Assembly: GCA_030753015.1 (NCBI GenBank)
Contig: JASMDC010000011.1
Coordinates: 1-64,000, forward strand
Source of the DNA: Candidatus Undinarchaeales archaeon
GTDB lineage: Archaea; SpSt-1190; JASMDC01
DNA: 64,000 bases
Direction of reading: 5' to 3'
Shown: positions 1-43,954 of the stretch, one piece after another
Layout of the letters: each line of letters begins with the position of its first letter
Numbering within the stretch: the stretch's first letter is position 1
Translations under genes and position numbers: made by a program
The notes under the pieces: model-generated
Seen by the model: only the letters and a program-made list of their open reading frames with translations
What the model was told of the DNA's origin: nothing
Databases searched by the model: none

Positions 1-299
1 TATACGTTTCCGTTATGCGTTTTCAAGAACGAGGCCGTTCAGCTCAGGGGTAAAATTCTAAAAGGTGCCGGTATTCGGTCGTGTCCTTAATGATACGGTA
101 AACAGTTAGTGGGGGGTCGAGCGGAGGGATTACCCTATACAAGTAGTATAAGACCATTCTCCTGATCCGGGCCCCACGTTACGTTCTTTAAAAAATAGAC
201 GCTTATCCACATCGGGTTGTTATCCGACATTCGGATGCCATGTTGAAATGCTATGATATCCGGACCGACCCGTTCCCCGGACAGGCGAGGACCGGAGCA

Positions 300-1124
300 T
301 CAGTCACAGTAGGTATAATTGATACCGAAGCTGCAGCCCATCAAGGCACAATTCTGCTCATTGACCACTCTTTTTTCCTCTTCGATGATCTTTGAAAGGT
401 CGTCCCCCTTGGATCGATAGAGGCACTTCTGCTGTGGTTCATTACCGCAACACCCGCAACCGCATGCAAGATACCACTCGACGGCAGCCTCCTCCGTCCC
501 CGTGCAGTCCTCAGGGCAGTTGCACGGCGACTCCAGCTCCTCGTCGCACACACCGTTCCCGCATGGGGCGCAAACGGTCGGCAGCTCCATCTGGGCCATG
601 CTCTCCATGCACGTGCCGTCCTCCGCCACCGAGTACTGGTCCTTGCGCAGCACGCGCACTCCGCCCTCGGGCCCGCAACCATCACCGCCAACCTCCAGCA
701 CGCACCGGCCGTCGCGGCACAGCGCCCGTGTCCGCGGTATGTCGGTGAGCTGGCAGGTCGGTACCATGAAGCACGTCGGTTCGAAGCACTGGTAGTCTGC
801 CTCGCACGCCTCCCCGTCCTTGATCGAGGTCTCCCACGCGCTGGCCCCGTTGCAGAAGAGGTTGTTGTTGTCCGTCCGGTCGCCCGGCGTGCACGGGGAC
901 GCAGCGCACCGGCCCATGTCCGCCTTGTAGTGGTCGCAGGCGTTCGAGGTGCACTCGGCATGTTCGCGACAGTCCTCACCTGCGGCCTTCAATGTTGCTG
1001 CTGGCGTGCTCGTCGTGGCGGGTGCGGCACCCGGCGCCACGTCCTCACCCTGCAGGCATCCTGGAAGGAGGAGGAGGCATCCGATGATCGCCAGCACAGC
1101 AGCATCACGAGGTATCATCGCCAT
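300..1124 (-). CDS. Cys-rich putative lipoprotein
   Basis: Start moved to ATG 1124 (GGTGA SD upstream, next to stop of previous gene); hydrophobic N-terminus with lipobox-like LLLPGC; many Cys incl. CGNGVCD..ESPCNCPEDC module. Confidence 0.75.
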   Translation of the reverse strand: MAMIPRDAAVLAIIGCLLLLPGCLQGEDVAPGAAPATTSTPAATLKAAGEDCREHAECTSNACDHYKADMGRCAASPCTPGDRTDNNNLFCNGASAWETSIKDGEACEADYQCFEPTCFMVPTCQLTDIPRTRALCRDGRCVLEVGGDGCGPEGGVRVLRKDQYSVAEDGTCMESMAQMELPTVCAPCGNGVCDEELESPCNCPEDCTGTEEAAVEWYLACGCGCCGNEPQQKCLYRSKGDDLSKIIEEEKRVVNEQNCALMGCSFGINYTYCD

Positions 1125-1132
1125 CACTGTAC

Positions 1133-4100
1133 TCACCCTGTAACTTCGCTCCCGGGCAATTCTGCCTGCGGCACTATGCGCTCGACGGTGGGGATGCACC
1201 CGCACTCCTTGGGCTCGATTGTGCACACGTCCTTGTCCACGTGCAGCTCGCAGGTGTCCAGGCAGCGCTTCGCCGTCACCTTGAGCTTGCATTCGCCGTA
1301 CACGATGGACGCGTCGATGTCGATGTCACCGAACTCGGTCTGCTTCATGACCACCAGGCGCGACTCGGGGAACAGGTCGGAGGGGACGATCATGTCGAGC
1401 CACACGGTCCCGTCGTCGGTACGGGCGACGATCCTTATGAGCGTTGTGGTGTCGGCCGGCACGTTGACGGGATCCGAGACCAGGGACGCGCTCTCCTGCG
1501 GTACCAGTATATCGGCCGTGATGTATGGTGCAAGCTCGACCGAGTGGTTGGCAGCATGGAGCACCTCGCCGCCCTCGGTGACGACCGAGAGCTCGACCTC
1601 GCCCGAGAACGGGCGCGGGTGCCAGTTCTGGAGCTCTATGGCCGCACGCACGTCGAGCGGTTCGCCCGAGCGGCTGACTGGACGGTCCTCCCTGTCGATG
1701 AAGAACGCATAGGTGAGCGTGAGGTCGAACGCCCTGACCTTAAGGCGCGCATCGGCGTAGATCTTCGGATTATCGTGGGCGAGGCAGTCATGGGTAACGG
1801 TGGAGCCGGTGCACGGATTGTCCCCGGCCTCGGCGTGGAGCACGTCGCGGAATAGGACGTGGTCCGTGGAGTTGATGACCTCCGCATGGAGCCCGAACGT
1901 GGCCCCGTCCATCGACGGCGGTATGGTGTACGTCCGTGTGTGGAGCTCTGTCGTCCCCTCGGAGCCCGTGGTCGCTGTGCTCTCGCTCTTCGTGCCGTCG
2001 AGCATGTTCCCGTCATGGGTGATGGTCCGGGTGACGGTGAGCTGGCCCTCGCCCTCGACGACCACGACGCCCGCCACGGTGTCCCCCGGATAGGCCTCGC
2101 GGGCCGTGGTGTTCTCGGGGAGGAGGATGAAGGAGCCGTCGCGCACGGCGCCCACGTCGAGCATCGTTGCAAGCTCGCCGATCTCGGAGACAACCTTGTC
2201 GCCCGCGTAGGTGGAGACCGAGGCCTTGGGGCGCAGGAATCGGATGTTCCCCTGTCTGTCCGCCTCGAGCGGGTCGCTGGTCAGCGTCAGGTTGTCCCGT
2301 GCCTCGAGCTGGAAGTTCTCGTCCGACACGAACACCGCGGTCTTCATGCACGAGCACCCGCCGGTCTCCGGACAGGTGCAGGTGAACAGCTTGTCTACCT
2401 CGATATCGATCGATCCCTCGAAGGGGAACACCCCGGAGTTCTCGACGCGCGCTGTGATGTCCACAATCTCACCCGGCAGGACGGCATGCACGTCGTCGGC
2501 GAAGGAGACGCTCAACCGCAGCGAGGGGGCCAGGGCACGGCACGCCTTGATGCAGGAGATGATGCGGGCGGAGGGGCCTGTGGCCTCGGCGGGGACGCAC
2601 TGGGCCATGCAGTGGATGGCGGACTGCGGGATGTCGTGGCCCGAGCCGTCCTCGTCGAGGCGACCGTCACCGTCATCATCGATGGTGTTGACCATGTCCT
2701 CGTCGATGTCGCCGTCACCGTCGTTGTCGAGGCCGTCGCCGCACGAGGAGACGCAGTCCATGCCCTCCAGGTTCTCGAGGCAGTTGCTCTCGCAGGTCAC
2801 GTTGATCTCGTTGCACCTGACGGTGCACAGCCTGGCTGCATTGACGTCGTCGGGGAACCGGTCGAAGCAGATGGTCTGGCACCGGTCCTCGTCCGAGCAG
2901 CCGTCCGCATTCGCCACGCACACGCCGCGGCAGCATACGCCGCCATCGCACTCCTGACCGTCGGCCTTGTCATCGCAGGCCGGTGAGCCCGAGCACGCGC
3001 TGGCGCCGGGAACGCAGTTCTTGTCGCAGCACATCCCCTCCTCGGCACCGGCGGCGCAGGGGATGCCCTCGTGGATGTCGCACTGCTCGTCAGGCGACCC
3101 GCAGGACTGGGCTCCGGGGATGCAGGTGGTGTCGCAGCAGAGGCCCTCGACGCCCTCGCACGCGTCGCTCTGGACCTTGCCCGCGCATTCGATCGAGCAC
3201 GCCAAGGCCCCGGGGACGCACCGGTGCTCGCAGCAGAGCCCGCCCTCGCACTCGGTACCGTCCGCAGCCTCGGCACAGGTGTCGGTGGTACAGGCAGTGG
3301 CGTCCGGGACGCACAGGAGGTCGCAGCACCAGCCGCCGGAGCAGGCCCTGTCCTCCTCCTCGCACGTTTCGCCATCGCACGAAGAGGCGTCGGGCACGCA
3401 CTGGCCCTTGCAGCACAGCCCGCCCTCGCACTCCGTCTTGTCGGGCCGTCCGAGGCAGGTGTTCCCCGCGCACTTGGCCACGCACCGCATCGCATCCTCC
3501 GATCCGGCCGTGTGCTTGACCGAGCACATGTCCTCGCAGGTCACATCGCAGGTCTCTGCGGTGATGCGCTTCTCGGCCTCGAGCCCGCGGCCCGTGCAGC
3601 AGAGGTCGCCGGAGCCGTCCTTGCACAGGCCGAAAGTGACCTTCGAGGAGGTGCCCGTGGTCGAGACGTCCCCGATGAGCCGGCATGCACCGGCCCAGTG
3701 CTTGGCCTTCCTATCGGCCGTGAGGGTGCTCGTGATGACGCCGTACTTACGACCGGCGGCGTGAAGGTACTTCCCGTCCCCGAGCCAGATACCCGTGTGG
3801 GAGATGCCCTGTTTGTAGGTGTTCTTGAAGTAGATGGCGTCCCCGCGCACAGGTTCGTCCACGAGCTTGCCCTGCTTGCGGCACCACTCGTACTGGGCGG
3901 AGGCCGTGCGGGGGATGTTCACGCCATGCTTCTTGAACACCTGCTGGGTGAGCGACGAGCAGTCGATGTAACACTTCCCGCCGGAGCAGTAGGGTACCTT
4001 GGTGGACATCTCGTAGTTCCAGCCCAGGTACTCCCTGGCAGTCCCGCACACGGCGTCGGACTTGTCGGAGTCGGTCCTCGTCGCACCCTTGAACGTCTCG

Positions 4101-7100
4101 ACGCCAGCGGTCTCGCCCACCATCTTCTCGCAGCACGCCGCGAGCTTTGCGGCCAGCGCCGAGTCCACCCTCTCGTCGCAGGTGGCGTCGGTGATCTGCT
4201 GTAGGCCCTCGACCAGGCACACGCACACTCCCAGCTCGGGATGGCAGTGCCCCTGGGGAGCGCCCATGGAGCCGCACACCAGCGAGCACTGTTCGCTCGC
4301 ACCCCCCGGACCCGTGCCAGGGGAGGATGACGGAGGGCCACGGTAGTCGAAGCATTTCTGTGAGTCGAGGAAGATCGCCTGCGGGTCCAGCTTGCCCATG
4401 GACACGAGGCTCATAAGAGGGGCGTCCGGCCACACGTCCAGGTTCGACTCGCGGACGGTGACGGGCTTGGGCTCCTGGAGGCACCGGCCGACCTGCTTGT
4501 TCTCTTTGGCGCACCCATCGCAGGAAAGATCGTTGGCCACGGCGGTGATCTCCTGGAGGGTCGCAGGTCCGGTGAGAACGCACTCGTCGTCGAACACAGA
4601 GGTGTCCACGGTCCCGTCGAACATGCACAGCTCAGCTCCCTTCCATCCCTCGGTGGCCTTGATCTGGTACGAGTTGAGATCTCCTGCCTCCTGGTTGTGG
4701 GTCCCGCTCACGTCGTTCTTGAGCTCGTTGCTCCCGGCGAGGCCGACGATGTCGATCGCCAGCTTCTGGAACTGTGCCAGGGTCGTCTCCCCGTTCGTGG
4801 CGAGCTCGTTGGAGCTTTGCTCGATGCCCAGCAGGATGTCGATGGTGTCCTTGCGTGTCGTCGCCGCGCCCTGGCGCAGGTTCTCCTCCTCGGCCTGTGC
4901 CAGCTCGCGCATCTTGGCCTCGAGGGACGGGTAGACCTTGTCGTAGTGCTCGAGGAACCGGACCGCGCGGCCGATGGCGTCCGCCACGTGGCCGGGGCTG
5001 TGCGTCCGTCCGTCACCGAGGACCGCCGAGCCCTCCACGGTGCACAGGTCTTTTACGTCAAAGGCCTTCTGATAGCACTCTTCCAGCGTGCGGGGGAACA
5101 CGAGAGCGTGCTCGCGCTTCTCCTTCGAGACCACGACCGCCGAGCAGGCGTCGGTGTCGGTGAACCGCTTCCCGTCCTTGCACACATCTCCGTCCTTCTC
5201 GTGGCAGCAGGAAACGGTGAGCGACTGGCCGGAGACCTCGCACGACGTGACGCCCAGGTCACCGCCGTCCCCTTCCTCCTTGGGTGTGAGCGTGCACCCG
5301 CTGGATGGCACGGTCCGCAGGCCCGCCGGGCACCCCTCCTCGCACTTGTCCTTGTCGGTGTACCGGCACTCGCCCTCGACCGGGTCGATGTCGTCCTTGC
5401 CGCACTTGGTGGTGTCGGCCGGATCGTTCCCCGCAGCGCATCCCGTTCCGGGGCAGCAGGGGAGCACGATGCACAGCGAGCACGTCTTCGCCTTCTTCAG
5501 GGCGTCAGCGGGCCGGGCGTCCTTGAGGCAGGCGGCGAGCTCGGCAGGGCAGGCCTTCACCGCCATCTCGCCGCATACGGCGGGCGTGAACTCGGGGCTA
5601 GCCACGCCCTCGGGATCGAGATTCAGCTCGTCGCACGATGTGTACTCGCCCGTGAACTGGGTGATGGCCTTCTCGCACTGCTTCTCCTGCTTCCTCAGCG
5701 CGTCCTCGAGGACGACGAGGTGTTCTTTGAGCGCCATGTAGAACTGTTTCATCTTGCCCAGCGTCTCGATGAGGTCGGCGCGGTACTCGTTGATGTTGTC
5801 GTACGTCCGGTCGGGGCAGGTGAGCAGCGACGTGTCCAGGCTCACGGACGCATGGGCACCCGCATCGATGGGATCGACGGTCACGCTGGCACGCTGTGTG
5901 CTGTCGGGCTCGCACTTCGTGCCGAGGTAGGGGATCGTTTCGAGATCGAGAGTGCCCGGGAGGATGGCGCCGGTGGCGGTCGTGGCCATGGCGGGCGCGC
6001 TCTGGGCTCCGGAGGGCATCGACGCCTCGAGGTGGTCCATGCACTTCGTCGTGTCGCAGGGACCGGTCACGCACATCTCGACCCTCGTCTTGTCACCACC
6101 GCCCTTGGTACCGGCCATCACCTGGCACCCAGCACAGGGATTGGCGTTGGTGTCGTCCTCACCGTTGGGCGCCCCGTCGTTGTCCCAGTCATCGTCCTGA
6201 GCGTTCGGGATGCAGTCGCCGTCGAGGTCGAGGTTGGTGACCCGGGGATCGGCGTCGGTGGAGTCCGGGATGCTGTCCCCGTCGCAGTCGTAGAGGTACC
6301 GGCAGTCCTCGACCTCCTGGTTGTCGGGGAGGCCGTCGTTGTCGTTGTCGCCGTCAAGGGTGTTGGGCGTTCCGTCGCCGTCGATGTCCTGGTCCTGGGC
6401 GTTGGGGATGGAGTCGCCGTCCATGTCGTCGTCGAAGTTGTTGCAGATGCCATCACCATCGATGTCGTTGCGCGGGTCCACGGACCCGGTGCTCCCTGAC
6501 TCGAGCTCGGGGAGCGGGTCGATGGCCTTGTCGTTCACCCTGATCTCGAAGTGGAGGTGGGGTCCCGTGGAGTACCCGGTGCTACCAACGAGGGCGATCT
6601 TCTGTCCCTGGCTGATGTCCTGACCGGTGGAGACCAGCAGCTTGGAGCTGTGGCCGTACCGTGTCTGGACGTTCTTCCCGTGATCGATGTACACGACGTT
6701 CCCGTAGCCCGTGGCCCACCCGGCGTACTTGACCTTGCCGGCCCCCGCGGCGACGATGGGCGTGCCCTGGGTCTGAGAGATGTCGAGCCCGTGGTGGTAG
6801 GAGCTGCAGTCGGCACAGGGTTTGGGACGCGGTCCGAACCGGGAGGTGATCCTGCCCTTGAGGGGCCAGATCCACTGGCTGTTGGTGAGGTAGTCCGGGC
6901 AGTTGACGGTACCGGCGGCAGGCGAGAGGGCCGGGACGTCGGCGGGTGTGCCCCCCAGCTCCTTGCATGCCTTGCGGAAGGTCGAGTAGATCTTCTCGGG
7001 ATAGACCGTACCGGTCTTCTTGCAGTAGTAGTCGACATCGTTCCACTTGGTACCCGGCCCGTAGTACTTGATGCACGACTTCATCATGGCGTCGGCGAGC

Positions 7101-10500: not shown

Positions 10501-13500
10501 GGTGCAGAAGTGCTCGTCGTCGTCGTAATCGGCCACGGGGAACCAGGCCGCCTGGAGGCAGTAGCCGTCCTCCTCGAGCCCGCACCAGCTCTCCCCCGCG
10601 TCGTCACCGCAGCACGTGTCGATGTCGTCGTCGACGCTCCTGAACCACCAGCCGTTGGGAGTCATGCACCGGCACGCGGGCTGGTCGAAGTCGGGCTCAT
10701 CGGTCCGCTGGTTCTCGTTGCAGTACCAATTCTGTGAGCCGTAGGACGGGGACGAGCACCAGGTGTCGGTCTCCGTGTCGCCACCGCAGCAGCGGTTCTC
10801 CCCGGACGGGTTGTCGGTCGTGAAGAGGTTCTGTCCGGCCTTGCAGTCGCAGTACTCCTTCTTGTCGTCAGCGTTGTCCTCGCGCACGGCGTTGTCGCAG
10901 TACCACGCACCATCGCCGGGATTAGGGCTCTCGCACCAGCTCTCTCCGGCCTCCTCGTTCACGCCACCGCAGCACTTGAACGGTCCCCCGTTCTTGTCCG
11001 AGTAGAGGTCTGGGCCCGCCTCGCAGTCGCAGTAGTCGCGCTTCAGGTCGGCATCGTCCTTGCGGACGTTGGTGTCGCAGTACCATTCGCCGCCACCGGG
11101 TACGGGATTCGAGCACCATGTGTCCACCTCGCCGACATCACCACCGCAGCACCTGTCGTCGCCTGCGTTGTCGACCGTGTAGAGGTCCTCGCCGGCCTCG
11201 CACTCGCAGTACTCGAGCTTGCTATCGGCATCGTCCTTGCGCACAGCATTGTCGCAGTACCATGCACCGTCACCGATCCTCGTGCTCTCGCACCATGTCT
11301 CGCCGGGTTCCTCGTTGACGCCACCGCAGCACTTATCGGCGCCGCTGTTCTTGGTGGAGTAGAGCTCCTCCCCGGCCTCGCAGTCGCAGTAAGCCTGCTT
11401 CACGTCGGCATCGTCCACGCGCACGGCGCCGTCACAGTACCACTGGCCGTCGCTGGCGGTGGGGCTCTCGCACCACGTCTCGGCCGCCTCCTCGTTGACG
11501 CCGCCGCAGCACCGGTTCGAGCCACTGTTCTTGGTGGTGTAGAGGCTGGGACCGGCCTCGCAGTCGCAGTAGGCCAGCTTGCTATCGGCATCGTCCACAC
11601 GCACAGCGCCGTCGCAGTACCAGGCGCCGTCGCCGACGGTAGGGCTCTCGCACCACGTCTCTCCAGGTTCCTCGTTGGTGCCCCCGCAGCACATGCTCGC
11701 ACCGCTGTTCTTGGTGGTGTAGAGGCGTAGCCCCGCCTCGCAGTCGCAGTAGGCCTGCTTCGTATCGGCGTCGTCCACGCGTACGGCGCCGTCACAGTAC
11801 CAGTCACCGTCACCGGGCGTTGGGCTCTCGCACCAGACCTCGCCGGGCTCCTCGTTGACGCCACCGCAGCACTTGTTGGCGCCGCTGTTCTTTGCCGTGA
11901 AGAGACTGGTGCCTGCCTCGCAGTCGCAGTACTCCTGCTTGTAGTCGGCGTCGTCCATGCGCACAGCACCGTCGCAGTACCAGGTGCCGGCACCGCTAGT
12001 GGGATTCTCGCACCACGTCTCCCCGGCCTCCTCGTTGGTGCCGCCGCAGCACTTCTTCGAGCCCGCGTTGTTCGTGGTGTAGAGGTTGGCGCCCGCCTCG
12101 CAGTCGCAGTACTCCTGCTTGACGTCGGCGTCGTCCTTGCGTGTAGCACCGTCGCAGTACCAGTCACCGCCACCGGCGGTAGGGCTCTCGCACCACGTCT
12201 CGGCCGCCTCCTCGTTGACACCGCCGCAGCATTTGTTGGCGCCCGCGTTCTTTGCCGTGAAGAGGTTGGTACCTGCCTCGCAGTCACAGTACGCCTGCTT
12301 GTAGTCGGCGTCGTCCTGGCGCACGGCGCCGTCGCAGTACCAGGTGCCGCTGCCCGCCGTCGGGCTCTCGCACCAGGTCTCTCCGGCCTCCTCTGCGTTC
12401 CCGCCGCAGCATCGTTTATTGCCGCTGTTCTTTGTGGTGTAGAGGTTGGACCCGGCCTCGCAGTCGCAGGCTGGCTGGGTCGTGTCGGCGTCGGGCTCGC
12501 GGGCGCCGTCGTCGCAGTACCAGGTACCGGCACCGGAGGTGGCGCTCTGACAGAAATCCTCCCCCGCGTCATCGCAGCACGTGGACCGGGCCCAGTGGTC
12601 GGCTCCCAGGATGCAGGTACAGGCCTTCTTCGAATCGTCACCGTCCACCGTCTTGGACCCGGTCAGGCAGTACCAAGACGAGGTGGCTGCGCAGAAGTCG
12701 TCGGTGGCTCCGCCATCGTCACCGCAGCATATAGTCTCCTGGGACGACCATAGCTTGGAACCGCAGGTCTGGCAGCCGTAGGACGACTGGTCGTAGTCGG
12801 TGATGTAGACACCGGAATCGCAGTACTTGTTGGTCGGCCCGCAGTAGGTGTCGGTCGACCCCCCGTCATCGCCGCAGCACTTGTTGCTGAGCCATACCTT
12901 GCTGCCACAGGTGACGCACCCGTACTCGGACTCGTCGGGATCGTTGTGGAGGGTACCCGACTCGCAGTACTTCCCGGACGCATCGCAGTACGTGTCGGTG
13001 GCCCCACCATCGTCACCGCAGCACTTGCTTTTTAGCCAGCTCTTGGACGCACAGGTCTCGCACCCGTACTTCTTCTTGTCCGGATCGGTGTACTTGACAC
13101 CGTCGAGGCAGAAGTTCGTGGAGCCTGCGCAGTAGTCGTCGGACGCACCGTCGTCCCCGCAGCACTTGTTGTTGAGCCATACCTTGCTCGCGCATGTCTG
13201 ACACCCGTACTTCTTCTTGTCCGGATCGGTGTACCAGCTGCCGTCGAAGCAGTAGCTCGTTCCCGAGCAGTAGTCGTCATTGGAGCCGTCGTCGCCGCAG
13301 CATTTGTTGGCCTTCCATGAGCCGCCCTTGCACACACAGCTGTTGGCGTCGTTGTCGCCGTTGCTGTTGGCGCACTTCGAGCACCAGTTCGCGTTCCCGA
13401 CGGCACAGTTGTAGCCCCCACCGCCGCATTTCAGGCCGGTGCACTTCTTCTCGCCGTCGCACTTCTTGCAGGCACCGCACTCTGAGTTCGAGCAGCAGTT

Positions 13501-13689
13501 GCCCCCGGCGTACCAGTTACCGCCGCAGCAGATGCCACCGGTCTTTGCCTGACAAGCATCGCTGACACAGTCCTGGCACGCGTTGCAGACCGGATCGCAA
13601 GCGGCGATGCCGAGATCGGGCAGGACCACCAGGGCGAGGAGGGCAGTAAGGACAAGGCAGATGCCCCACTTCCCGTCCGGTATTTCCAC
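7591..13689 (-). CDS. Giant Cys-rich repeat surface protein with C-terminal membrane anchor
   Basis: Signal peptide; about 20 six-Cys repeats; helical region; Ig-like segments; C-terminal APG + TM helix + RK tail. Confidence 0.85.
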   Translation of the reverse strand: MEIPDGKWGICLVLTALLALVVLPDLGIAACDPVCNACQDCVSDACQAKTGGICCGGNWYAGGNCCSNSECGACKKCDGEKKCTGLKCGGGGYNCAVGNANWCSKCANSNGDNDANSCVCKGGSWKANKCCGDDGSNDDYCSGTSYCFDGSWYTDPDKKKYGCQTCASKVWLNNKCCGDDGASDDYCAGSTNFCLDGVKYTDPDKKKYGCETCASKSWLKSKCCGDDGGATDTYCDASGKYCESGTLHNDPDESEYGCVTCGSKVWLSNKCCGDDGGSTDTYCGPTNKYCDSGVYITDYDQSSYGCQTCGSKLWSSQETICCGDDGGATDDFCAATSSWYCLTGSKTVDGDDSKKACTCILGADHWARSTCCDDAGEDFCQSATSGAGTWYCDDGAREPDADTTQPACDCEAGSNLYTTKNSGNKRCCGGNAEEAGETWCESPTAGSGTWYCDGAVRQDDADYKQAYCDCEAGTNLFTAKNAGANKCCGGVNEEAAETWCESPTAGGGDWYCDGATRKDDADVKQEYCDCEAGANLYTTNNAGSKKCCGGTNEEAGETWCENPTSGAGTWYCDGAVRMDDADYKQEYCDCEAGTSLFTAKNSGANKCCGGVNEEPGEVWCESPTPGDGDWYCDGAVRVDDADTKQAYCDCEAGLRLYTTKNSGASMCCGGTNEEPGETWCESPTVGDGAWYCDGAVRVDDADSKLAYCDCEAGPSLYTTKNSGSNRCCGGVNEEAAETWCESPTASDGQWYCDGAVRVDDADVKQAYCDCEAGEELYSTKNSGADKCCGGVNEEPGETWCESTRIGDGAWYCDNAVRKDDADSKLEYCECEAGEDLYTVDNAGDDRCCGGDVGEVDTWCSNPVPGGGEWYCDTNVRKDDADLKRDYCDCEAGPDLYSDKNGGPFKCCGGVNEEAGESWCESPNPGDGAWYCDNAVREDNADDKKEYCDCKAGQNLFTTDNPSGENRCCGGDTETDTWCSSPSYGSQNWYCNENQRTDEPDFDQPACRCMTPNGWWFRSVDDDIDTCCGDDAGESWCGLEEDGYCLQAAWFPVADYDDDEHFCTACAGNIWESLYDLSDEECCGDDPGESWCGDRGYCLEGVWHPVADPDDDAHYCEQCVEEEWREGTCCGDDVDEKWCGTAGYCYHGDYHPAIGLEVFARETPVYAEEACATDPLRDPFNQGSCAESKTYEVFPGASLDINIFTCSLLGCHCTYPMFDLFDTYQGLTYLKGRYQDLPQELGYATHIRLNATGERVRISATTDQCFYSSVTLSYPTTMCDVCDRTDGCFDHIDKCQVRQTQCHFCLFHPENCTDELIGGLEGCLYTDASNNNRCLKCARHLQTCQRCLDDEECREHFDLCIDNTQICDGLLNTDMITFQECFFGGLTACRETLMALAGRAALLCEFADDDLAKVVFMCNVPLGLGYRFEDVNNRFAARRYADILPLTKKKELTRMLGPAINEMVANAAGETAVLAAQLQDRFPKLAQALNATIALNASIKDTATELDFNMEEDLSRALDYGVVALYRLTTTQEYARTAGGMDTALFMLERIQDRARSLDNLRAIINNRTIEQFFTKAQLTDLPSDDLMTTVTALRVLVGMVNTVFEVDETKVAQDRLAEQEGRLRDAILATSVSGVAVDPAFMDEVRSKVAQVAAGWVTITITERESYRLEVEREDVSKTALALKRRTDILTLNLTEDNLIAVTVPALVEISVPDGIEYYWSLFTIRLYNAKGQAMEDVVVPYRVKKGVTHSIEELHFDRKVKVLDAVSLVAWEVPLLEVDDVLELKFVAKKGLCRTVADCKEGEVCDNIHPLGVCNTQCTACGTVCDSGDPAYEVCNGNGACVAESSRLDKGQACQCNEICASNLCTMGVCCAKGEFADPINMVCSNKLNLLLISETQFEVILGDSYVIAVHIANPSGVAKTFTVRASGVLADNVMIFRPTFVLQPWEYRQLLLQVTGLISGKRTLVIDVEEKDGELRDSGAIDVVVRSPAQSMGVEMRTAPGLTVAHLALLGLLAATAIARKPIYAPRGRV
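10240..13330 (-). repeat. Intragenic tandem repeat array (about 11 units of 177-180 bp flanked by shorter approx 140-165 bp units)
   Basis: gtcgcagtacca recurs at 180-bp spacing about 10.7-12.5 kb; protein unit CCGG.NEE..E.WC.SP..G.G.WYCD.A.R.DDAD.K..YCDCEAG. Confidence 0.9.
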
Positions 13690-13754
13690 GGATAGATCCT
13701 CCGCTCGATAGACCTTCGTCTACCTGCTAGGAGTACAATCCGCGTTCGTGTTTT

Positions 13755-14219
13755 TTATAGGTTGGTTTTTAAGGGGAACCGGAGCACGCGCCGCACCGGG
13801 ACGAAGCCGCAGAGCTCGTAGAACGCGGCGGCGCGTTCGTTGCCCTCGTTCACCGAGACCTCCAGAACAGAGCAGTCCTCGCGCTGACCATCGCTCTTGA
13901 CGTGGTCCATCAGAATGCGGCCCACACCCTTGCTGCGAACATCCCGGTCAACGGCGATGAAGGAGAGGCGGCATACGTCCTGGCCGCTCCATCGGTCGCG
14001 GGTGAACCGGAACCATGCAGCGCCGACGACGCGTTCACCATCGCAGGCCACCACCACCCGCTCGCCCCGAGCAAGGCTCTCGCGGAGCTCGCGCTCTCGC
14101 TCGGCGGCGTTCCAGACCCTCTCGGGGAAGAACTCCTCGGTGAATGTGAGATCCAGGGCTACAACAGCGGCGAGGTCGGCGGGAGAGCTGGGATTCAGGG
14201 GGCGGATGGTGACGGGCAT
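13755..14219 (-). CDS. GNAT family N-acetyltransferase
   Basis: Motif A IAVDRDVRSKGVGRILM and motif B NERAAAFYELCGF. Confidence 0.9.
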   Translation of the reverse strand: MPVTIRPLNPSSPADLAAVVALDLTFTEEFFPERVWNAAERERELRESLARGERVVVACDGERVVGAAWFRFTRDRWSGQDVCRLSFIAVDRDVRSKGVGRILMDHVKSDGQREDCSVLEVSVNEGNERAAAFYELCGFVPVRRVLRFPLKTNL

Positions 14220-14234
14220 GTCCTCTCTCGACTC

Positions 14235-17200
14235 CTATCCCGTGATGATCATGTCCACGGGCGGTGCCTCGGTCTTTGCGTCCGGACGGTAGTAGTCGTA
14301 CACGATGGATCGCGGGGCTGTGGCCTTCACCGGGTAGAGCGCTACGAGCCTGTACGTGAACTTCAGCCCCTCCTTGTCCAGGTTCTGGATGTAGAGGATC
14401 GCCTGCCGCGGCTTCACGGAGTACCTAGAGATGACACCCCGCTGTTTGAGATTCTCGAGGTCCTCTGCCACGACGGCGAACCCGGGCGGGATGCCCATAT
14501 CGGCGACGATGAAGGGCGCCACGCCGGCACCGTTGTTCCATACCTTGACGTCGGCGGTCACCATGTCATTGGTGGCAAGCTCGGTCCTGTCGTACTTGAG
14601 CGAGAACCCGACCATGTCCTGGGCCGAGCGCTCGGCGAGCACCGTGGGGTGCGACCATGGCAGATAGTACGAGCCCACGACCTGGTAGTGGAGCAGCCCT
14701 CCACCCTCGGTGACGAGCTCTACGGTGTGCGCTCCGGGTGCCAGTTCGTCGCCCAGGGAGACGAGGTGCATGATGTCGACGTTCCCCTTCGTGACACGGA
14801 GGGTGCGGACCTCGGCGTCGTCGACCTTAACGGTGATGGTGGCGTCAGCGCTCTCCTTGGCCTTGAGGGACGAGCCCATCAGCGCCTTGAGGCTGAGCAC
14901 CGTAGAGTAGGTGGAGCCCCACTTGCCGAAGCTGTCCTTCTCCGAGGTTATGAACGCCAGCGCCTTGGTGACCAGCATGGGGGAGTGTTGTGCCTCGATG
15001 AGGGCGAGCGCGATCATGGCGCTGTCCTCGAGGCTCTTGGCCTTTCCGCCCGAGCCCATGAACCCGCGTGGCGCGTCCATGTCCTTGGGGGCCCACCACG
15101 CCATGTCGTCCTTGACGGTGGCCCTGTCGACGGCCTGGACGAGGAGCTGGTTCGTGAGCGAGTCGGAGACGTCGTACTCCACCATGGCGCTGAGGCAAAG
15201 GGCGATGGTGTACATGTCGGCCGTGGCCGGATCGATGTTCTTGCGGAGGTAGCTCAGCGCACGGGAGAACGCCCTATGGTCGCGGTCGAGGCCCGACTCG
15301 AGCAGGCTCCATACAAGGTAGCACGTGGTGCCCGTCATCGACTTCTGCCGCTTGCTCATTTCGAACATGGCTCCCTGCGGCTCCCACGAGCCGTCGGGCT
15401 TCTGCTCGGAGAGCAGGTACCTCTGGGTCCGCTCGATGACGGCCGGGTCCACCTCGTACACCTTCGCCATGTCGCTGAACTGCTGTAGTCCCATGGCGGT
15501 GAGCAGGAGCTTGGCCGGCGGATTACCGAACCAGTCGAACCCGCCGGGCGTCGATGTCTCGAAGCTCAGCAAGCGCTGGTAGCCCACACCGATGAAGTTC
15601 TCGGCCTTCAGCTCCAGCTCCGGATTCGCCTGCTTGGTCTCGCGCAGGTACTGGAGCACCATGATGTTGGGATAGGTCGTGGACGAGGTCTGCTCGAAGC
15701 ACCCGGTAGGCATCTTGAGCATCCCGTCGAGCCCCTCGACGATCTGGCTCATCACGCCGGGATGGATCTTGAGGATGGCCTTGTAGCTGTCGGGGATCGC
15801 GTCTGCCGGGACGGTGAGCGGCACCGTCACGGTCCCCTCCTTCAGACGTTCGGACGTGCTCGTGCGGAACTCACGGCCGTTGGGGAGGATCTCCACCTCA
15901 CGGCGCACAGCGTCGCTCGAACCGGTTCCGTAGGCGAACACGGTGAGGTTGTGGCGGCCGATGGTGTCCGCGCGCAGAGACAGGTGAGCCGACGTGATAT
16001 CGTTGGCACCGAGCGTGACGATGATCTCGCGCTTCGAAGGATCGCTCATCGGAAGCAGCGTGTCCTGGAGCGTGAACCACGGATCATCGGGATCCTCCTC
16101 CACCACCAGCCGCACATCCTGCTCGGCGTCGAGGTAGTTGTACACCGTCAGCGGCACGGTCACTGTATCGTTCTGTGTGAGGAACACGGGGAAGTCGATG
16201 TCCACGAAGAAGTCCTGGAACACGAGGATGCCCGCCTCGGTCGAGCCCAGTTCGCCGCTCATGGCGTTCGCCATGGCGCCCACCTTCCAGGTGGTGATGG
16301 AATCTGCCAGAGGGACGTAGATATCGGCCTTCCCCTGCTCGTCGGTGATGACCTGGGGATTGACGTAGAGCGTCTCCGGGAAGAACGCACGGACGCGCGG
16401 GCCCTCCTCCTCGCTGCCCCCGCCACCTTCCTCGTCCAAAAACTCCACTTCCATATCAGCCTTACCCATCGAGAACGACGTCATGATCTGCTTCTCCGGC
16501 CTGCTCTTGATGTCGTTGAGGATGCGCTCGCGCATGGTGTCGGACACCTCGTCGTTCATCCCCATGTTGACGCTCCGCATGAGGGGTGTCGCCAACGCGA
16601 AGAAGCCGATGATGAGGAGGGGCAGTGCGATGCCGAACGCGGAGATCAGCATGGGCAGTGCGAGCTTTGTCCGCTGGCGCATGTGCCGGGCAGCGCCCCC
16701 GCAGAACGGGAGCATCAGCAAGCTCGAGGCAAGGAGGAAGACCGCGCCGACGCTTCCTTCATCGAGCGCACCGCTCCGAGAGTATGAGAAGATGAAGGGC
16801 ATGGCGATGATAACCATCATGAAGACGAGAAGGGCGAAGAGATGGTTCTTGATGCCGGCGAGCACGGTGTCCGTCACCGAGGCGTTGTACAGGATGAAGA
16901 GCGATCTGAGCATGAACGCTCCAAGGACCGCGACGCAGGCGACGATCACGATAGGGCTGCGGACCATGGTCCCGGCCGCCATGACACCGAGCAAGGCGAT
17001 TGGGAAGAGGATACCGGCGATGAAGCGGGCATAGTACCCTGCCGCACGGACGTGCTGGAGCCGCCAGAGGGTGACGCTCAGGAGGAGGAAGGTGAGGAGA
17101 AACACGCCTTTCGGTGCGTCCTGTTCACTATAGCTGAGGTCGTCGATGCCATCGTCCACCCACTCGAGCATGTAGATGAACGCGACCAGAGCGCCGAACA

Positions 17201-19373
17201 CCAGTCCGACTAGGACAATGCCCTTGACGAGGTCCTTGATGGCGGCCCACCACCCCTCCTCTGTACCTCGTACGAAGGCAGCGACGCTCGCGAGGCCCGC
17301 CAGAAGGCATACAAGAGAGAACAGCAGGGCCTGGTTCCGGAAGAACGAGCGCTTCGCCTCCTCCACTTGGGCCTCCTTCTCCTCACGTGTGGATACCTGG
17401 ATGCCGAACGGGCCCAACTTTGCCTCAGGCGCGTTGCGCGCCAGGAACACCTGCTCGGCGATGTGAATGTCCTCCTCCACCTTGACGGTGTCAGGTGCCG
17501 GTGCCGGCCGCTCGGGTGCCATGGGGTTGAACCCGTACACCGTGAACCGTGGTCGTGCAAGCTCGCGTCCCAGGTAGAACGCCATGCGCTCGAACCCGGC
17601 CTTGGCCTCCTCGAGAGCGAACACCGACTCGTCCACGACGGTGAGCCCGACGGCCGCGGGGACGCCTTCACCCTTCCGTTCGGTAGCGATGCTGAGCTGG
17701 GCTAGTTCTCCCGGTTTGTAGCTCTCCTGGTCCGTCCCGATGGACACCGCGAGCTGGTCTGCGGGGAGCACCACGATGCGTCGCGTGGCCCGCTCGACGG
17801 CTGTGCTGCGAGTGGTGTGATAGGCGTGCACGATGAGCTGGCCCGCCATCGAGGCGTCGATGTCGAACACCGCGTCTCCCTGTCCGCTCTTGAGGGTGAG
17901 GGAGCGGGCGTCCACGGTCTGTCCGTCCTTGACCATGTCGACGTAGGCGGCAGGAGCGGCCCCCGAGTGGAGCACGGTGACCGTCGCCGTATCGCCCACC
18001 CGGTACACACCCCTGTCCGTCCGGACGAGGATGGTGCTCCGCTCGAGCTCGTAGTCGCGCCGTTCGCGTCCCTCGCGATAGGACCACTTCTTACTGCCCG
18101 TGCGAGCTTCCGCATCCTTCGCCTTGAGGATGAGCTGCGGATTGTTGTTCTGTGGCCTGAACTCGAACGAACCGAGGCCGAGGCTCCCGGTCTTCACGGT
18201 CGTCGAGAAGTCGACGTCACCGCTCACTTCCACCGTCGCGGGGACCGGTACACCGTCGGGTGTCGAGGTGGCCACGTACATCACGTTGAGGAAGTTGAAG
18301 TTCAAATGCCCGCTCTCGGGGATGAGGTCGATTACGATATCGGATGTGGACACGGGGAACTGGCGCACGATCTGCTCGACATGGTCGCCCCGGTCGGTCA
18401 CCGAGACGTTGAGAAAGAGGAGAGCACCGCCCTTCTCCAGCTCGGAGCCGTGGAACGCCGCGGGCAGGGTGTAGGTGAACTTGACCTGGCCCATCTCGTC
18501 CGTGGTGCCCTTCCAAGAGTGGAGCTCGCGCTCACCGACGTCCACGGTATAGAACACGACCTCGGCCTCGCTCTTGGAAACGGGCTTGCCGAAGAAGTAC
18601 CGGGCGGTGATGGTCCCCTCGAGCTTGTCGTTCGGCTTGTAGAAGGAACGGTCGGTCTGCAGGGCGACCCTGAACTTGGGAAGGACGTACCGCTCGACCC
18701 TGATGCTCTTCTGGCTCTGGACGCCGTTGACGATGACGGTCACGCGGTACCTGCCGAGGATGAGCTCGGGGGCCAGCGCGATGCTCACTGACGCGATCCC
18801 GTACTCGCTCGTGGTGATGACCTTGCGGAACACCTTGTTGCCTTTGGGATCCTCCAGCTCGAAGGTGGCGTTCGTGGCGGCAAGGGGCTTGGCGTCGATG
18901 GAGGAGAGAGCAAGAGCGCGTACGTGCACCAGTTGCCCGGGCTGGTAGAGGGGCTTGTCCGTGGACACTAGCACCTTGGCCTTGCGCTTCACGGTCAGGA
19001 TCGCCTCGTGCGTATCGGTCCCCGACTCGATGATGAGGGTGTAGGTCCCCTCCTCCTCGGGCGCGACGAACTTGGGCGCAGAGCTCCCTTCCGTGTTCGT
19101 TTTTCCCTCGAACATGAGCTTCTTCTCGCCGGGCCGGTCCTTGGGTGTGATGTAGACCTTCACGGCCTCGTCGGGACGTGGCTTGTCGGTACCGACGTGG
19201 CGGGCGACCACCCTGATCGCCTGGGGCGCACCAGGCTGCACGACCGCCTGGCCGAGGACGATGGTGTCGTACTGGTCGATGCGCTCCTCCATGGTGGAGG
19301 CGCGGTACGCCATGAACTGGTTCGCACCCAAGAAGAGGATAACGAGGAATACAGCAAGAATATACCTTCCCAT
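14235..19373 (-). CDS. Alpha-2-macroglobulin / thioester-containing protein with internal multi-pass TM insertion
   Basis: TDKPLYQPG, EYVLP-like RYVLPKF, VVDESV, RAFFPETL, DSITTW, thioester GCFEQ (15690-15704), QKPDGSW, C-terminal YDYY. Confidence 0.92.
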   Translation of the reverse strand: MGRYILAVFLVILFLGANQFMAYRASTMEERIDQYDTIVLGQAVVQPGAPQAIRVVARHVGTDKPRPDEAVKVYITPKDRPGEKKLMFEGKTNTEGSSAPKFVAPEEEGTYTLIIESGTDTHEAILTVKRKAKVLVSTDKPLYQPGQLVHVRALALSSIDAKPLAATNATFELEDPKGNKVFRKVITTSEYGIASVSIALAPELILGRYRVTVIVNGVQSQKSIRVERYVLPKFRVALQTDRSFYKPNDKLEGTITARYFFGKPVSKSEAEVVFYTVDVGERELHSWKGTTDEMGQVKFTYTLPAAFHGSELEKGGALLFLNVSVTDRGDHVEQIVRQFPVSTSDIVIDLIPESGHLNFNFLNVMYVATSTPDGVPVPATVEVSGDVDFSTTVKTGSLGLGSFEFRPQNNNPQLILKAKDAEARTGSKKWSYREGRERRDYELERSTILVRTDRGVYRVGDTATVTVLHSGAAPAAYVDMVKDGQTVDARSLTLKSGQGDAVFDIDASMAGQLIVHAYHTTRSTAVERATRRIVVLPADQLAVSIGTDQESYKPGELAQLSIATERKGEGVPAAVGLTVVDESVFALEEAKAGFERMAFYLGRELARPRFTVYGFNPMAPERPAPAPDTVKVEEDIHIAEQVFLARNAPEAKLGPFGIQVSTREEKEAQVEEAKRSFFRNQALLFSLVCLLAGLASVAAFVRGTEEGWWAAIKDLVKGIVLVGLVFGALVAFIYMLEWVDDGIDDLSYSEQDAPKGVFLLTFLLLSVTLWRLQHVRAAGYYARFIAGILFPIALLGVMAAGTMVRSPIVIVACVAVLGAFMLRSLFILYNASVTDTVLAGIKNHLFALLVFMMVIIAMPFIFSYSRSGALDEGSVGAVFLLASSLLMLPFCGGAARHMRQRTKLALPMLISAFGIALPLLIIGFFALATPLMRSVNMGMNDEVSDTMRERILNDIKSRPEKQIMTSFSMGKADMEVEFLDEEGGGGSEEEGPRVRAFFPETLYVNPQVITDEQGKADIYVPLADSITTWKVGAMANAMSGELGSTEAGILVFQDFFVDIDFPVFLTQNDTVTVPLTVYNYLDAEQDVRLVVEEDPDDPWFTLQDTLLPMSDPSKREIIVTLGANDITSAHLSLRADTIGRHNLTVFAYGTGSSDAVRREVEILPNGREFRTSTSERLKEGTVTVPLTVPADAIPDSYKAILKIHPGVMSQIVEGLDGMLKMPTGCFEQTSSTTYPNIMVLQYLRETKQANPELELKAENFIGVGYQRLLSFETSTPGGFDWFGNPPAKLLLTAMGLQQFSDMAKVYEVDPAVIERTQRYLLSEQKPDGSWEPQGAMFEMSKRQKSMTGTTCYLVWSLLESGLDRDHRAFSRALSYLRKNIDPATADMYTIALCLSAMVEYDVSDSLTNQLLVQAVDRATVKDDMAWWAPKDMDAPRGFMGSGGKAKSLEDSAMIALALIEAQHSPMLVTKALAFITSEKDSFGKWGSTYSTVLSLKALMGSSLKAKESADATITVKVDDAEVRTLRVTKGNVDIMHLVSLGDELAPGAHTVELVTEGGGLLHYQVVGSYYLPWSHPTVLAERSAQDMVGFSLKYDRTELATNDMVTADVKVWNNGAGVAPFIVADMGIPPGFAVVAEDLENLKQRGVISRYSVKPRQAILYIQNLDKEGLKFTYRLVALYPVKATAPRSIVYDYYRPDAKTEAPPVDMIITG

Positions 19374-19452
19374 ACAGGTCCAGAGTGCAGGAAATATTAA
19401 ATGGCCTTTGTTATGTTTGGTAGTGAGGGTGTGTGAGCTTCTCCTCCCGTCT

Positions 19453-43153: not shown

Positions 43154-43885
43154 ATGGACGCTCTTGACCTCGAATCGGAAGGATATGCTGCTACCGAGTC
43201 GGCCGATGGTTACCGACAGACCAACGACCTCTCATCCTACAGTGTCGCTAGCGGTGTCGCCATGGCGGGCCTCATCATCGGGCTCGGCGTGCTCGCAGAA
43301 GAAGCGGAAGCGCGCGACTGGCGCAATTACGACGTTGGCCAGGACGACAACGGGAACCTCCCCAACCAGCCTCAAGAGCCGCATTACCAGCCTCAGCCCG
43401 AGACCAATCATGTTCAAGAGCACGTCCACCAGCAGCCGAACATCAACTACACTCAGGACTCTGACGGCGACGGTCTATCCGACTACAGGGAGGTCCACAC
43501 TTATGGTACCAATCCCCGCATGTTCGACACCGATCGTGACGGTATCAACGACGGGAGCGAGGTCAACTTCTACAGGAGCAATCCGCTCTCGAACGACACG
43601 GACGGCGACGGCCTCTGGGACGGGAAGGAGGTCTACCATGGGACGAACCTCACGGACTGGGACACGGACAACGATGGATGGTCCGATGGTGACGAGGTGC
43701 GCTACGGCACCAATCCACGCAACTCCCGATCGCAACCCCGTGGAAACAACAGACCCCACTGGCGGGACCGCAATCGCGGCTGGCGCGATCACAACGGACG
43801 ATACCGCCAACCGCACTATCCGCATCACAACGGCGGGGGACGGCTCATAATCAGGCTACCGCGGCTGAACTTCACCATCAGATGA
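43154..43885 (+). CDS. Secreted TSP3-like (DxDGDG) Ca-binding repeat protein with conserved acidic leader
   Basis: Leader + h-region + AEA cleavage-like site; four D.DGDG..D..EV..GTNP repeats; Arg/His-rich tail. Confidence 0.8.
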   Translation: MDALDLESEGYAATESADGYRQTNDLSSYSVASGVAMAGLIIGLGVLAEEAEARDWRNYDVGQDDNGNLPNQPQEPHYQPQPETNHVQEHVHQQPNINYTQDSDGDGLSDYREVHTYGTNPRMFDTDRDGINDGSEVNFYRSNPLSNDTDGDGLWDGKEVYHGTNLTDWDTDNDGWSDGDEVRYGTNPRNSRSQPRGNNRPHWRDRNRGWRDHNGRYRQPHYPHHNGGGRLIIRLPRLNFTIR

Positions 43886-43954
43886 GCTGATTTTCACTCA
43901 GCGGTGACAACAAAAGGAAAACTTTATTAACAGACCGGGGGCCGGAAATCCCTC

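Follow-up and report, generated by a model that had tools for sequence, protein, structure and literature searches.

The 64,000 nucleotides analysed here (the window: positions 1 to 64,000 of contig JASMDC010000011.1, assembly GCA_030753015.1, from a Candidatus Undinarchaeales archaeon) carry at positions 300 to 19,373 a row of five genes, the fourth of which encodes a 2153-residue exported protein that combines two types of peptidoglycan hydrolase domain with a probable third. This protein belongs to a family of 19 paralogous giants, referred to below as the H family, and its gene is tightly coupled to that of a second exported protein, which is made of repeats and bears a sorting signal at its C-terminus. 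We read it, with about even confidence, as a surface-associated, three-activity wall-breaching enzyme that would act against bacteria and be made together with an anchored fibre, while the alpha-2-macroglobulin (A2M) and GNAT genes beside it would form a separate unit. The reading draws on domain content, catalytic motifs, paralogy, the absence of murein genes and gene layout. The five proteins are labelled P0001 (A2M), P0002 (GNAT), P0003 (repeat fibre), P0004 (hydrolase) and P0005 (small Cys-rich protein); G000 denotes the source genome and G001 its congener (3.6 Mb), which is the sole close relative among the species genomes compared.

14235..19373, minus strand: P0001, alpha-2-macroglobulin/thioester protein with an N-terminal signal anchor, 1712 aa
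13755..14219, minus strand: P0002, GNAT acetyltransferase, 154 aa
7591..13689, minus strand: P0003, exported repeat protein (sorting signal at the C-terminus), 2032 aa, 8.5% Cys
1133..7594, minus strand: P0004, exported, predicted triple peptidoglycan hydrolase of the H family, 2153 aa, 6.2% Cys
300..1124, minus strand: P0005, Cys-rich protein, 274 aa with 30 Cys (open reading frame 300-1292, likely start at 1124)

An earlier sequence-only reading of this DNA had described five co-oriented genes with gaps of 15, 65, -4 and 8 bp from P0001 to P0005, and all of these are present, on the minus strand. It had also counted four of the five products as exported, in agreement with a Kyte-Doolittle hydropathy scan that finds an N-terminal hydrophobic segment in P0001, P0003, P0004 and P0005 and a C-terminal one in P0003 alone. 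Its thioester A2M, GNAT and peptidoglycan hydrolase are borne out by Pfam, which finds M23 and NlpC/P60 in the last of these; it had overlooked both the SLT-like domain of P0004 and an insert of eight helices in the A2M. The parts of P0004 are as follows.

6950..7462, minus strand: probable SLT/lysozyme-like lytic transglycosylase domain (residues ~45-215, with E-S, G-G-I-M-Q and G-Y-N-R-G motifs)
6515..6799, minus strand: Peptidase M23 (LytM-type) domain (Pfam E-value 1.4e-34, 118.6 bits)
6155..6472, minus strand: Asp-rich thrombospondin-type-3-like (calcium-binding) repeats with a D-x-D-x-D-G pattern (TSP_3 matched only weakly, under the cut-off, at E 0.0063)
4025..5914, minus strand: middle module common to the family (residues 561-1190), in which Cys-rich, poorly modelled parts separate a pair of long helical stretches
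3686..3997, minus strand: NlpC/P60 cysteine peptidase domain (Pfam E-value 9.1e-19, 67.8 bits)
2795..3643, minus strand: six to eight Cys-rich repeats of ~30 aa (G-x-C-C ... C-V-P, motif spacing 29-36 aa)
1136..2695, minus strand: H-family C-terminal module of ~520 aa, stacked immunoglobulin (Ig)-like beta-sandwiches with a conserved Cys knot at the end

Both peptidase domains retain their active residues. The zinc-binding motifs of the M23 domain are intact (H-x3-D as H-H-G-L-D at residues 267-271, H-x-H as H-L-H at 346-348), and both are aligned in the best match among solved structures, TagE (5j1l, 3.5e-24); the domain also aligns to ShyA, LytM and lysostaphin. In the NlpC/P60 domain the catalytic Cys (in D-C-S-S-L, 1211-1215) and His 1266 (in H-T-G-I, 1266-1269) are kept and align with those of 9ubf which, together with 4hpe, is the best solved match (3e-12 for 9ubf), both being wall hydrolases of Tn916-like conjugative elements. 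The hallmarks of SLT/GH23 enzymes are a catalytic Glu-Ser, a G-L/I-M-Q and an A/G-Y-N-x-G motif. The N-terminal domain of P0004 is 53-55% identical to domains of two paralogs, which score 27.8 bits (the 55% identical one, above the Pfam cut-off) and 19.6 bits against SLT, and 25 of its 30 named nearest clusters in the ESM Atlas carry SLT (top score 0.95). Searched alone against solved structures the N-terminus gave no match, and a three-sequence profile gave only an endolysin at E 0.62. Judged from these domains, P0004 appears to be a genuine multi-domain peptidoglycan hydrolase whose M23 and NlpC/P60 domains are intact and whose SLT domain is probable.

The remainder of the protein looks like a scaffold shared with its relatives. 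The middle module is common to at least 12 paralogs at 22-29% identity, and the ~30-aa Cys repeats recur in paralogs on contigs C36, C53 and C25. Long helical mid-regions had been ascribed to both giants; in P0004 they are borne out only at residues ~601-651 and 835-963, which are modelled confidently by AlphaFold2 (predicted local distance difference test, pLDDT, ~70-87) within a module whose mean is 49, and the 2032-residue protein gave no usable fold (pLDDT < 50). The C-terminal module is predicted as all-beta with a pLDDT of 82, and Foldseek retrieved for it only generic Ig, MG or adhesin arrays at template modelling scores of at most 0.31.

A profile of this C-terminal module defines the H family, with 19 members in G000. 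When 18 paralogs are aligned, 12 columns are invariant, Cys accounting for 6 of these, and the same Cys-knot pattern is found by regular expression in 15 of the 19 members. Wall-hydrolase domains occur in six of the 18 members scanned with Pfam: besides P0004, those on C21 and C41 carry M23 and SLT-like domains, C46 and C53c carry NlpC/P60, and C53b carries M23 together with NlpC/P60. The remaining members have Kazal or FG-GAP domains or no recognisable domain. All matches of G000 to M23 (4/4), NlpC/P60 (4/4) and SLT (3/3) lie inside H-family giants. The C-terminal module is found in two of the 17 genomes of the class, both of this genus, and a search of 1.84 billion representative proteins returned 79 matches at E <= 0.001, of which 25 reach <= 1e-30. 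G000's own genes make up about half of the strong matches; the others are metagenomic relatives of 22-62% identity, which again have M23, C39-like, NlpC/P60, FG-GAP or C-type lectin heads. A word-based protein search with the C-terminus of P0004 found its own or near-identical clusters only. We propose that the H family could be a polymorphic set of effectors, secreted or displayed at the surface, in which heads are swapped on a shared chassis.

Two further families accompany giant genes in G000. They comprise proteins of ~950 aa (F950, 19 copies) and ~600 aa (F600, ~20 copies), both exported and without a Pfam match, which always occur as a tandem pair; the pair flanks giant genes (e.g. C21:7133-11802, C41:13822-18500, C39:8763-13291 and C117:31614-36142). 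F600 has an N-terminal membrane helix with R-R-R-G-Q before it, an N-terminus that we take to resemble a class III/pilin-type signal. Among the small-genome relatives of the class, M23 is found in all four genomes of one other family, labelled f4. Giants of f4 at L060:2077-8940, L061:1031-7129 and L062:5912-9247 measure 1111-2287 aa and have M23 in their last quarter, which for two of the three means right at the C-terminus; the L061 protein has two M23 matches and one giant has also an SLT match. The H-family C-terminal module is present in none of these f4 M23 giants.

The likely target of P0004 is suggested by what the genome does not encode. G000, which is 98.9% complete, has no match to Mur_ligase_M, to the penicillin-binding protein (PBP) transpeptidase domain or to FtsW/RodA (SEDS), all of which were matched in control bacterial genomes. 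Because the archaeon has no genes for murein synthesis, we read the substrate as the bacterial wall, and an anti-bacterial or bacterial-wall-directed role would be the natural reading of these domains. The wall-destroying, anti-bacterial character first ascribed to the hydrolase is to that extent supported, its M23 and NlpC/P60 domains being intact and murein synthesis genes missing from G000.

The partner that adjoins P0004 is P0003, in which two features could be delimited.

10240..13599, minus strand: Cys-rich repeat array of ~19 units of 47-60 aa, each opening at a C-C-G motif, within the first 1150 residues
7594..7707, minus strand: C-terminal tripartite signal (R-T-A-P-G, hydrophobic helix, R-K tail)

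Successive CCG motifs lie 46-50 aa apart at first, 59-61 aa apart further on and 47-55 aa apart in the last stretch, and TRF reports a 180-bp unit in 9.2 copies and a 141-bp unit in 2. One marine sequencing run (X11) shows an in-frame deletion of 141 bp at 13060-13202, which removes exactly one 47-aa repeat and indicates that the number of repeats varies in natural populations. The C-terminal anchor noted from the sequence is upheld by both the hydropathy profile and the tripartite signal. A [TS]APG motif followed by a hydrophobic helix and an Arg-rich or basic tail was recognised by eye, among 88 regular-expression matches, on six further G000 proteins (C45:360-6473, C29:26434-28512, C62:16189-19527, C78:10-864, C106:50024-56905 and C117:57433-65904), and contig C23 carries a gene of the exosortase/archaeosortase family (PF09721, 40 bits, above the cut-off). 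Since the motif is A-P-G and not P-G-F, and no curated NCBIfam sorting-domain model (PGF-CTERM or related) matches P0003 at E <= 0.01, we call the signal archaeosortase-type only; by its recurrence it is a predicted lineage-specific sorting signal. P0003 belongs to no Pfam, NCBIfam or PHROG family, and ESM Atlas scores for its middle (<= 0.78) are uninformative. Its homologues are itself and a 92% identical ortholog: a word-based search with the C-terminal half found its own or near-identical clusters only, and scans of metagenome contigs and of genome contigs found no relative and G001 only, respectively.

The genes for the two giants are tightly coupled in the window, where stop and start overlap as ATGA with GGGAGGG upstream, and in G001, where the stop is followed by 2 nt and a GTG start; the close coupling described earlier is seen at both loci. 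The signal peptides of P0003 and P0004 both end in G-I-A-A-C, and those of their G001 counterparts in G-I-T-A-C and G-L-A-A-C. Such lipobox-like ends may provide both giants with an N-terminal lipid anchor, and the statement that the hydrolase has no anchor, correct for its C-terminus, may not hold for its N-terminus. P0005 likewise has a lipobox-like signal peptide end (L-P-G-C); it matches no family in Pfam, NCBIfam or PHROG and its only relative is the 80% identical ortholog of G001. A complex prediction of P0004 residues 561-1190 with P0003 residues 1380-1720 returned a score of 0.00 which, as the fold of the P0003 partner is itself uncertain (pLDDT < 50), weighs neither for nor against binding. 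Homology between the middle parts of P0003 and P0004 was considered and rejected, with a best BLASTP E-value of 0.67.

On the other side of P0003 lie the GNAT and the A2M. The latter has all the canonical domains of a thioester protein, with Pfam matches to MG2, MG3, A2M_BRD, A2M, TED (TED_complement, 8.7e-39) and A2M_recep in canonical order and all above their cut-offs, and two features of it are of particular relevance.

15690..15704, minus strand: thioester motif G-C-F-E-Q (CxEQ), residues 1224-1228, inside the TED match
16593..17345, minus strand: eight predicted transmembrane helices (Kyte-Doolittle), residues 677-927, inserted after the bait-region domain and ahead of the A2M (MG7) domain

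The best solved relatives of P0001, with matches of full-length type, are A2ML1 (7q1y, 1.6e-66), A2M and CD109 (down to 3.3e-59), while Escherichia coli YfhM is matched at only 9e-7; going by these scores, P0001 is much closer to metazoan A2ML1/A2M/CD109 than to the bacterial YfhM-type A2M. The membrane helices follow a linker (~590-676) after the bait-region domain, in a stretch (residues 600-1000) without any Pfam match. A word search of 5.8 billion proteins found only three homologous clusters for this insert, 81-87% identical, and in the searches run here it was not found beyond the genus-level group. It is lacking in the A2M paralog on C11. Given the N-terminal anchor and an even number of helices, both halves of the ectodomain would face outside. 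G000 holds two other A2M paralogs, one beside a histone/helicase region and one beside an IS605-type transposase gene, neither of which adjoins an H-family giant. Bacterial A2M is commonly paired with PBP1C. No such pair exists in G000, which has no PBP transpeptidase (PF00905; the PF00912 glycosyltransferase was not searched), and the neighbours of P0001 are the GNAT and a DUF498 gene. Anchored bacterial A2M serves to protect the envelope, and by analogy P0001 is most likely a separate envelope protease trap with an intact thioester. P0002 matches Acetyltransf_1 in Pfam (1.5e-17); of the NCBIfam models RimI fits it best, but its 38.9 bits fall short of the cut-off (86.4). It has no paralog in G000 and neither a hydrophobic N-terminus nor an export signal, and is predicted to be cytoplasmic.

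Taken together, these observations suggest how the locus might work. The SLT-like domain of P0004 would cut glycan strands, M23 the peptide cross-links and NlpC/P60 the stem peptides, and its chassis of helical and Cys-rich middle, Cys repeats, Ig-like sandwiches and Cys knot would bear these as interchangeable heads. The P0003 fibre, fixed by its archaeosortase-type signal, could hold or present P0004 at the cell surface, with P0005 as a small, Cys-rich, lipoprotein-like accessory. Breaching of the wall would then be local and contact-dependent, and we infer that it might serve an attack on bacteria or attachment to them. The A2M would most likely be a protease trap, threaded into the membrane, that guards the cell's own envelope from foreign proteases, and the GNAT a cytoplasmic bystander.

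Several points weigh against this reading. The SLT region of P0004 scores 14.3-14.8 bits against Pfam SLT, under the cut-off of 21.3, and neither the whole protein nor its segments have a Pfam wall-binding domain (LysM, SH3 or PG_binding). Ten of the 19 H-family members are flanked by the F950 and F600 families, both of which are absent at the P0003-P0004 locus, and the pairing with P0003 is unique to this locus, so that P0003 is not the general partner of the family. No RNA sequencing run was found to carry the locus in a run search. As to the separateness of the A2M, P0001 and P0002 are probably co-transcribed in G000, given the gap of 15 bp, and read-through into P0003 may occur. Moreover, archaeal A2M genes recur beside genes for Ig-domain surface proteins and conflict systems in the survey of Makarova et al. 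(2021, PMC8416519), so that, as far as that account goes, the adjacency seen here may not be pure chance; a loose functional link of the A2M with the giants may thus exist. Lastly, killing of or attachment to bacteria and the digestion of wall debris are indistinguishable from these data.

Digestion is the alternative that fares best, which we consider possible if rather unlikely. P0004 and its hydrolase-bearing paralogs would be exoenzymes breaking down wall debris or dead cells on marine particles as a source of carbon and nitrogen, and P0003 a mere adhesin or fibre encoded next door. The marine occurrence of the archaeon, its large genome (3.85 Mb) and its wealth of other giants that are exported and bear lectin-like, LamG or F5/8-type-C domains would all fit a particle-attached degrader, and domain scans saw no toxin, pore-former or injection machinery in the locus. 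However, the canonical routes for wall sugars were not detected in G000, which has no match to the anhydro-N-acetylmuramic acid (anhydro-MurNAc) kinase AnmK and none above the cut-off to the MurNAc-6-phosphate etherase MurQ. The presence of three bond specificities in one chain is in addition typical of enzymes for local wall penetration, and a gene so closely coupled to that of an anchored protein would be expected to act at the cell surface.

A bolder version of the wall-breaching reading, which we regard as unlikely, would make the genus a large-genome offshoot of a class otherwise of small DPANN-type genomes, turned predator or ectoparasite of marine bacteria and armed with 19 interchangeable giants, in which P0003 and P0004 form a tethered wall drill (a fibre of variable repeat number with a three-enzyme head) and the membrane-threaded, metazoan-like A2M acts as a complement-like sentinel that covalently captures prey proteases at the contact site. 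If true, no contact-dependent apparatus against bacteria would have been described in an archaeon before it.

Whether the five genes form one system was the central claim of the sequence-only reading, according to which they encode a stalk-delivered lytic machine whose A2M traps prey proteases or covalently tags targets; the GNAT would in that case modify a component. Co-orientation, short gaps and a gene order kept in G001 speak for it, as does the recurrence of archaeal A2M genes beside Ig-domain surface proteins and conflict-system genes described in PMC8416519. The conservation in G001 is, however, not specific to the cluster. A2M, GNAT, P0003, P0004 and P0005 are 89, 75, 88, 90 and 80% identical to their G001 orthologs (88-92% for P0003 and 75-92% for the five genes overall, depending on the comparison), and the flanking housekeeping genes, at 75-96%, bracket this range; being equally conserved, they indicate that the order reflects the general collinearity of the two congeners. 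In addition, G001 has two DUF4382 lipoprotein-like genes (210 and 182 aa; L025:16029-17314) on the opposite strand between A2M and GNAT, a pair absent from the window, so that no operon runs from the A2M to the giants there. Of the 18 other H giants, none has a gene for an A2M, GNAT or anchored repeat protein next to it, and neither of the two other A2Ms lies beside an H giant; the GNAT, moreover, carries no export signal. Signals for transcription and translation, recognised by eye with the archaeal promoter consensus in mind, would point in the same direction.

19392..19402, minus strand: TATA-like A/T box ~24 nt upstream of the A2M start, which fits a leaderless mRNA
13751..13759, minus strand: TATAAAAAA box (TATA-like), overlapping the GNAT stop and ~66 nt upstream of the P0003 start, a putative promoter element
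190..195, minus strand: run of six T, a possible archaeal terminator, ~105 nt past the P0005 stop

A Shine-Dalgarno-like GGAGGA also precedes the P0003 start by 8-13 nt. The separate promoter-like boxes, the DUF4382 split and the contexts of the paralogs thus lead us to two units, A2M-GNAT and P0003-P0004-P0005. The inclusion of A2M and GNAT in one apparatus with the giants is not supported in view of the collinearity of G001, the DUF4382 genes, the contexts of the paralogs and the promoter-like box of P0003, and the synteny comparison lends it no help, as the only relative with the locus is G001, of the same genus, and A2M and GNAT are unlinked to other H giants. The integrated machine is therefore improbable in our view, and short gaps and shared orientation alone had overstated the size of the 'system'. 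Least probable is a non-murein substrate, with the domains acting on protein cross-links, glycans or pseudomurein-like polymers of the cell's own envelope or of other archaea. They might then serve to remodel the envelope, to fuse cells or, as a DPANN-classed lineage would lead one to expect, to attach the cell to an archaeal host. M23 and NlpC/P60 folds are able to cleave other peptides and the class relatives have genomes of 0.6-1.2 Mb, a size usually associated with life on archaeal hosts, but murein enzymes are what all the catalytic motifs and the closest solved structures point to, three murein-specific activities co-occur, and the genome was found to have no murein-type synthesis genes.

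Bacteria-killing archaeal hydrolases, DPANN transglycosylases and giant predatory genes are already in print, and P0004 is a variant of the known archaeal peptidoglycan hydrolases. Strock et al. (2025, PMC12352652) describe exported M23-type and other wall hydrolases in murein-free archaea, acquired from bacteria, patchily distributed and with a proposed anti-bacterial use, including M23 homologues of zoocin A in 10 archaeal genomes. P0004 likewise is an M23-type wall hydrolase exported by a murein-free archaeon. However, the enzymes presented in that account are small and modular and pair a catalytic with a recognised wall-binding domain (e.g. PG_binding_1), whereas P0004 has 2153 aa, three predicted catalytic domains, no recognised wall-binding one and a chassis shared by 19 paralogs. 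In the 'vampiristic' Woesearchaeota, as reported by Vigneron et al. (2022, PMC9723730), large GH23/SLT-type transglycosylases were read as a means of attack on bacterial walls; the organisms of that report have small genomes and single transglycosylases, sometimes with a pore-forming toxin, whereas here the hydrolases are fused into giants, the genome is of 3.85 Mb and no toxin is seen in the locus.

Conjugative elements of Gram-positive bacteria (Tn916-like Orf14/Orf16/Orf17; 9ubf, 4hpe) and phage tails also have hydrolases that unite transglycosylase, M23/LytM and NlpC/P60-CHAP activities in one exported chain, by which a wall is breached locally. They measure a few hundred residues and serve DNA-transfer or injection machines at the wall of the producer or recipient, whereas no such machine is encoded around P0004. 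PrgK, for its part, has LytM, SLT and CHAP domains. Giant exported proteins with occasional SLT domains and thrombospondin-type-3 repeats, and a proposed role in the binding and degradation of prey walls, are described for the omnitrophotal 'Archaeovorins' (West-Roberts et al. 2023, 10.1101/2023.11.21.568195); in that description a bacterium preys on archaea with proteins of >10,000 aa, whereas here the roles would be reversed and the proteins, of ~2,000 aa, belong to a multi-copy paralog family.

Archaeal A2M homologues with an intact CxEQ, 27 proteins in 24 genomes, were listed by Makarova et al. (PMC8416519). P0001 shares with these proteins, as that paper presents them, the signal peptide, MG/Ig domains, TED and intact CxEQ, and differs in being nearest to metazoan A2ML1/A2M/CD109 and in its eight-helix insert. 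The H family resembles polymorphic toxins and the archaeal VARTIG modules outlined in the same paper in its conserved scaffold, swapped modules, many paralogous loci and variable small neighbours. Polymorphic toxins join a conserved N-terminal delivery part to a variable C-terminal toxin followed by an immunity gene, whereas in the H family it is the C-terminal ~500 aa that are conserved and the heads and middle that vary; no immunity-like gene pattern was seen beside the H giants, whose neighbours are other giants, F950/F600 and housekeeping genes.

What is new is the probable fusion of three hydrolase types in a 2153-aa protein, the 19-copy family that holds all wall-hydrolase domains of the genome, the coupling to an archaeosortase-type anchored fibre and the membrane-threaded A2M that adjoins it. 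Archaeal antagonism against bacteria has been demonstrated only recently, and with small secreted hydrolases alone; here a widespread marine archaeon puts all its wall-cutting domains on one expanded family of giants, which yields a concrete and testable set of candidates for effectors against bacteria, the three catalytic domains being separable. The genus may also represent a DPANN-affiliated lineage that combines a large genome with a lifestyle directed at bacteria. G000 (3.85 Mb, 60% GC, 117 contigs, 98.9% complete, 5% contamination) and G001 are three to six times larger than the other 15 genomes of the class (0.6-1.2 Mb), and literature searches turned up no large-genome member of the class, which does not prove that none is in print.

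The layout itself is well supported. Independent marine metagenome contigs span the P0003/P0004 (5549-9866) and A2M/GNAT (13999-15072) junctions with 0 differences, so that it is no assembly artefact, and the locus is present in seawater or marine metagenomes from 12 studies. The host is an archaeon, since genes for ribosomal protein S2, proteasome alpha, RNase P p30, SBDS and exosome subunits lie on the contig of the locus. One end of this 92.8-kb contig is where the window begins, and the sequence beyond P0005 was read in G001. Two other origins were considered and set aside: a bin chimera at the locus is ruled out by the archaeal core genes on the contig and by identical pieces in independent runs, and for a prophage or mobile element the PHROGs matches are domain-level only, neither tRNAs nor Rfam matches occur in the window, and with 61-67% GC the cluster is close to the genome as a whole (60%).

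Very long genes are common in G000. Open frames of at least ~900 codons number 157 and make up 17.9% of the genome (e.g. C40:16585-41628 and C51:104057-116449); 108 of the frames reach at least 1000 aa and 30 at least 2000 aa, the longest has 8347 aa, and one of 4130 aa contains 15% Cys. An N-terminal hydrophobic segment is found in 108 of the 157, and a Cys content of at least 4% in 64. Further along the window, positions 62215-63999 (running past its edge) encode an exported protein with repeated bMG3, MG4, Big_1 and CarboxypepD_reg-like domains, so that this contig carries another surface protein of the macroglobulin or Ig-array type. The 1399-aa protein encoded at 35509-39708 combines LamG with PQQ/beta-propeller repeats and has a hydrophobic helix at its C-terminus, and two small proteins built of bacterial thrombospondin-3 repeats lie at 43154-44617.

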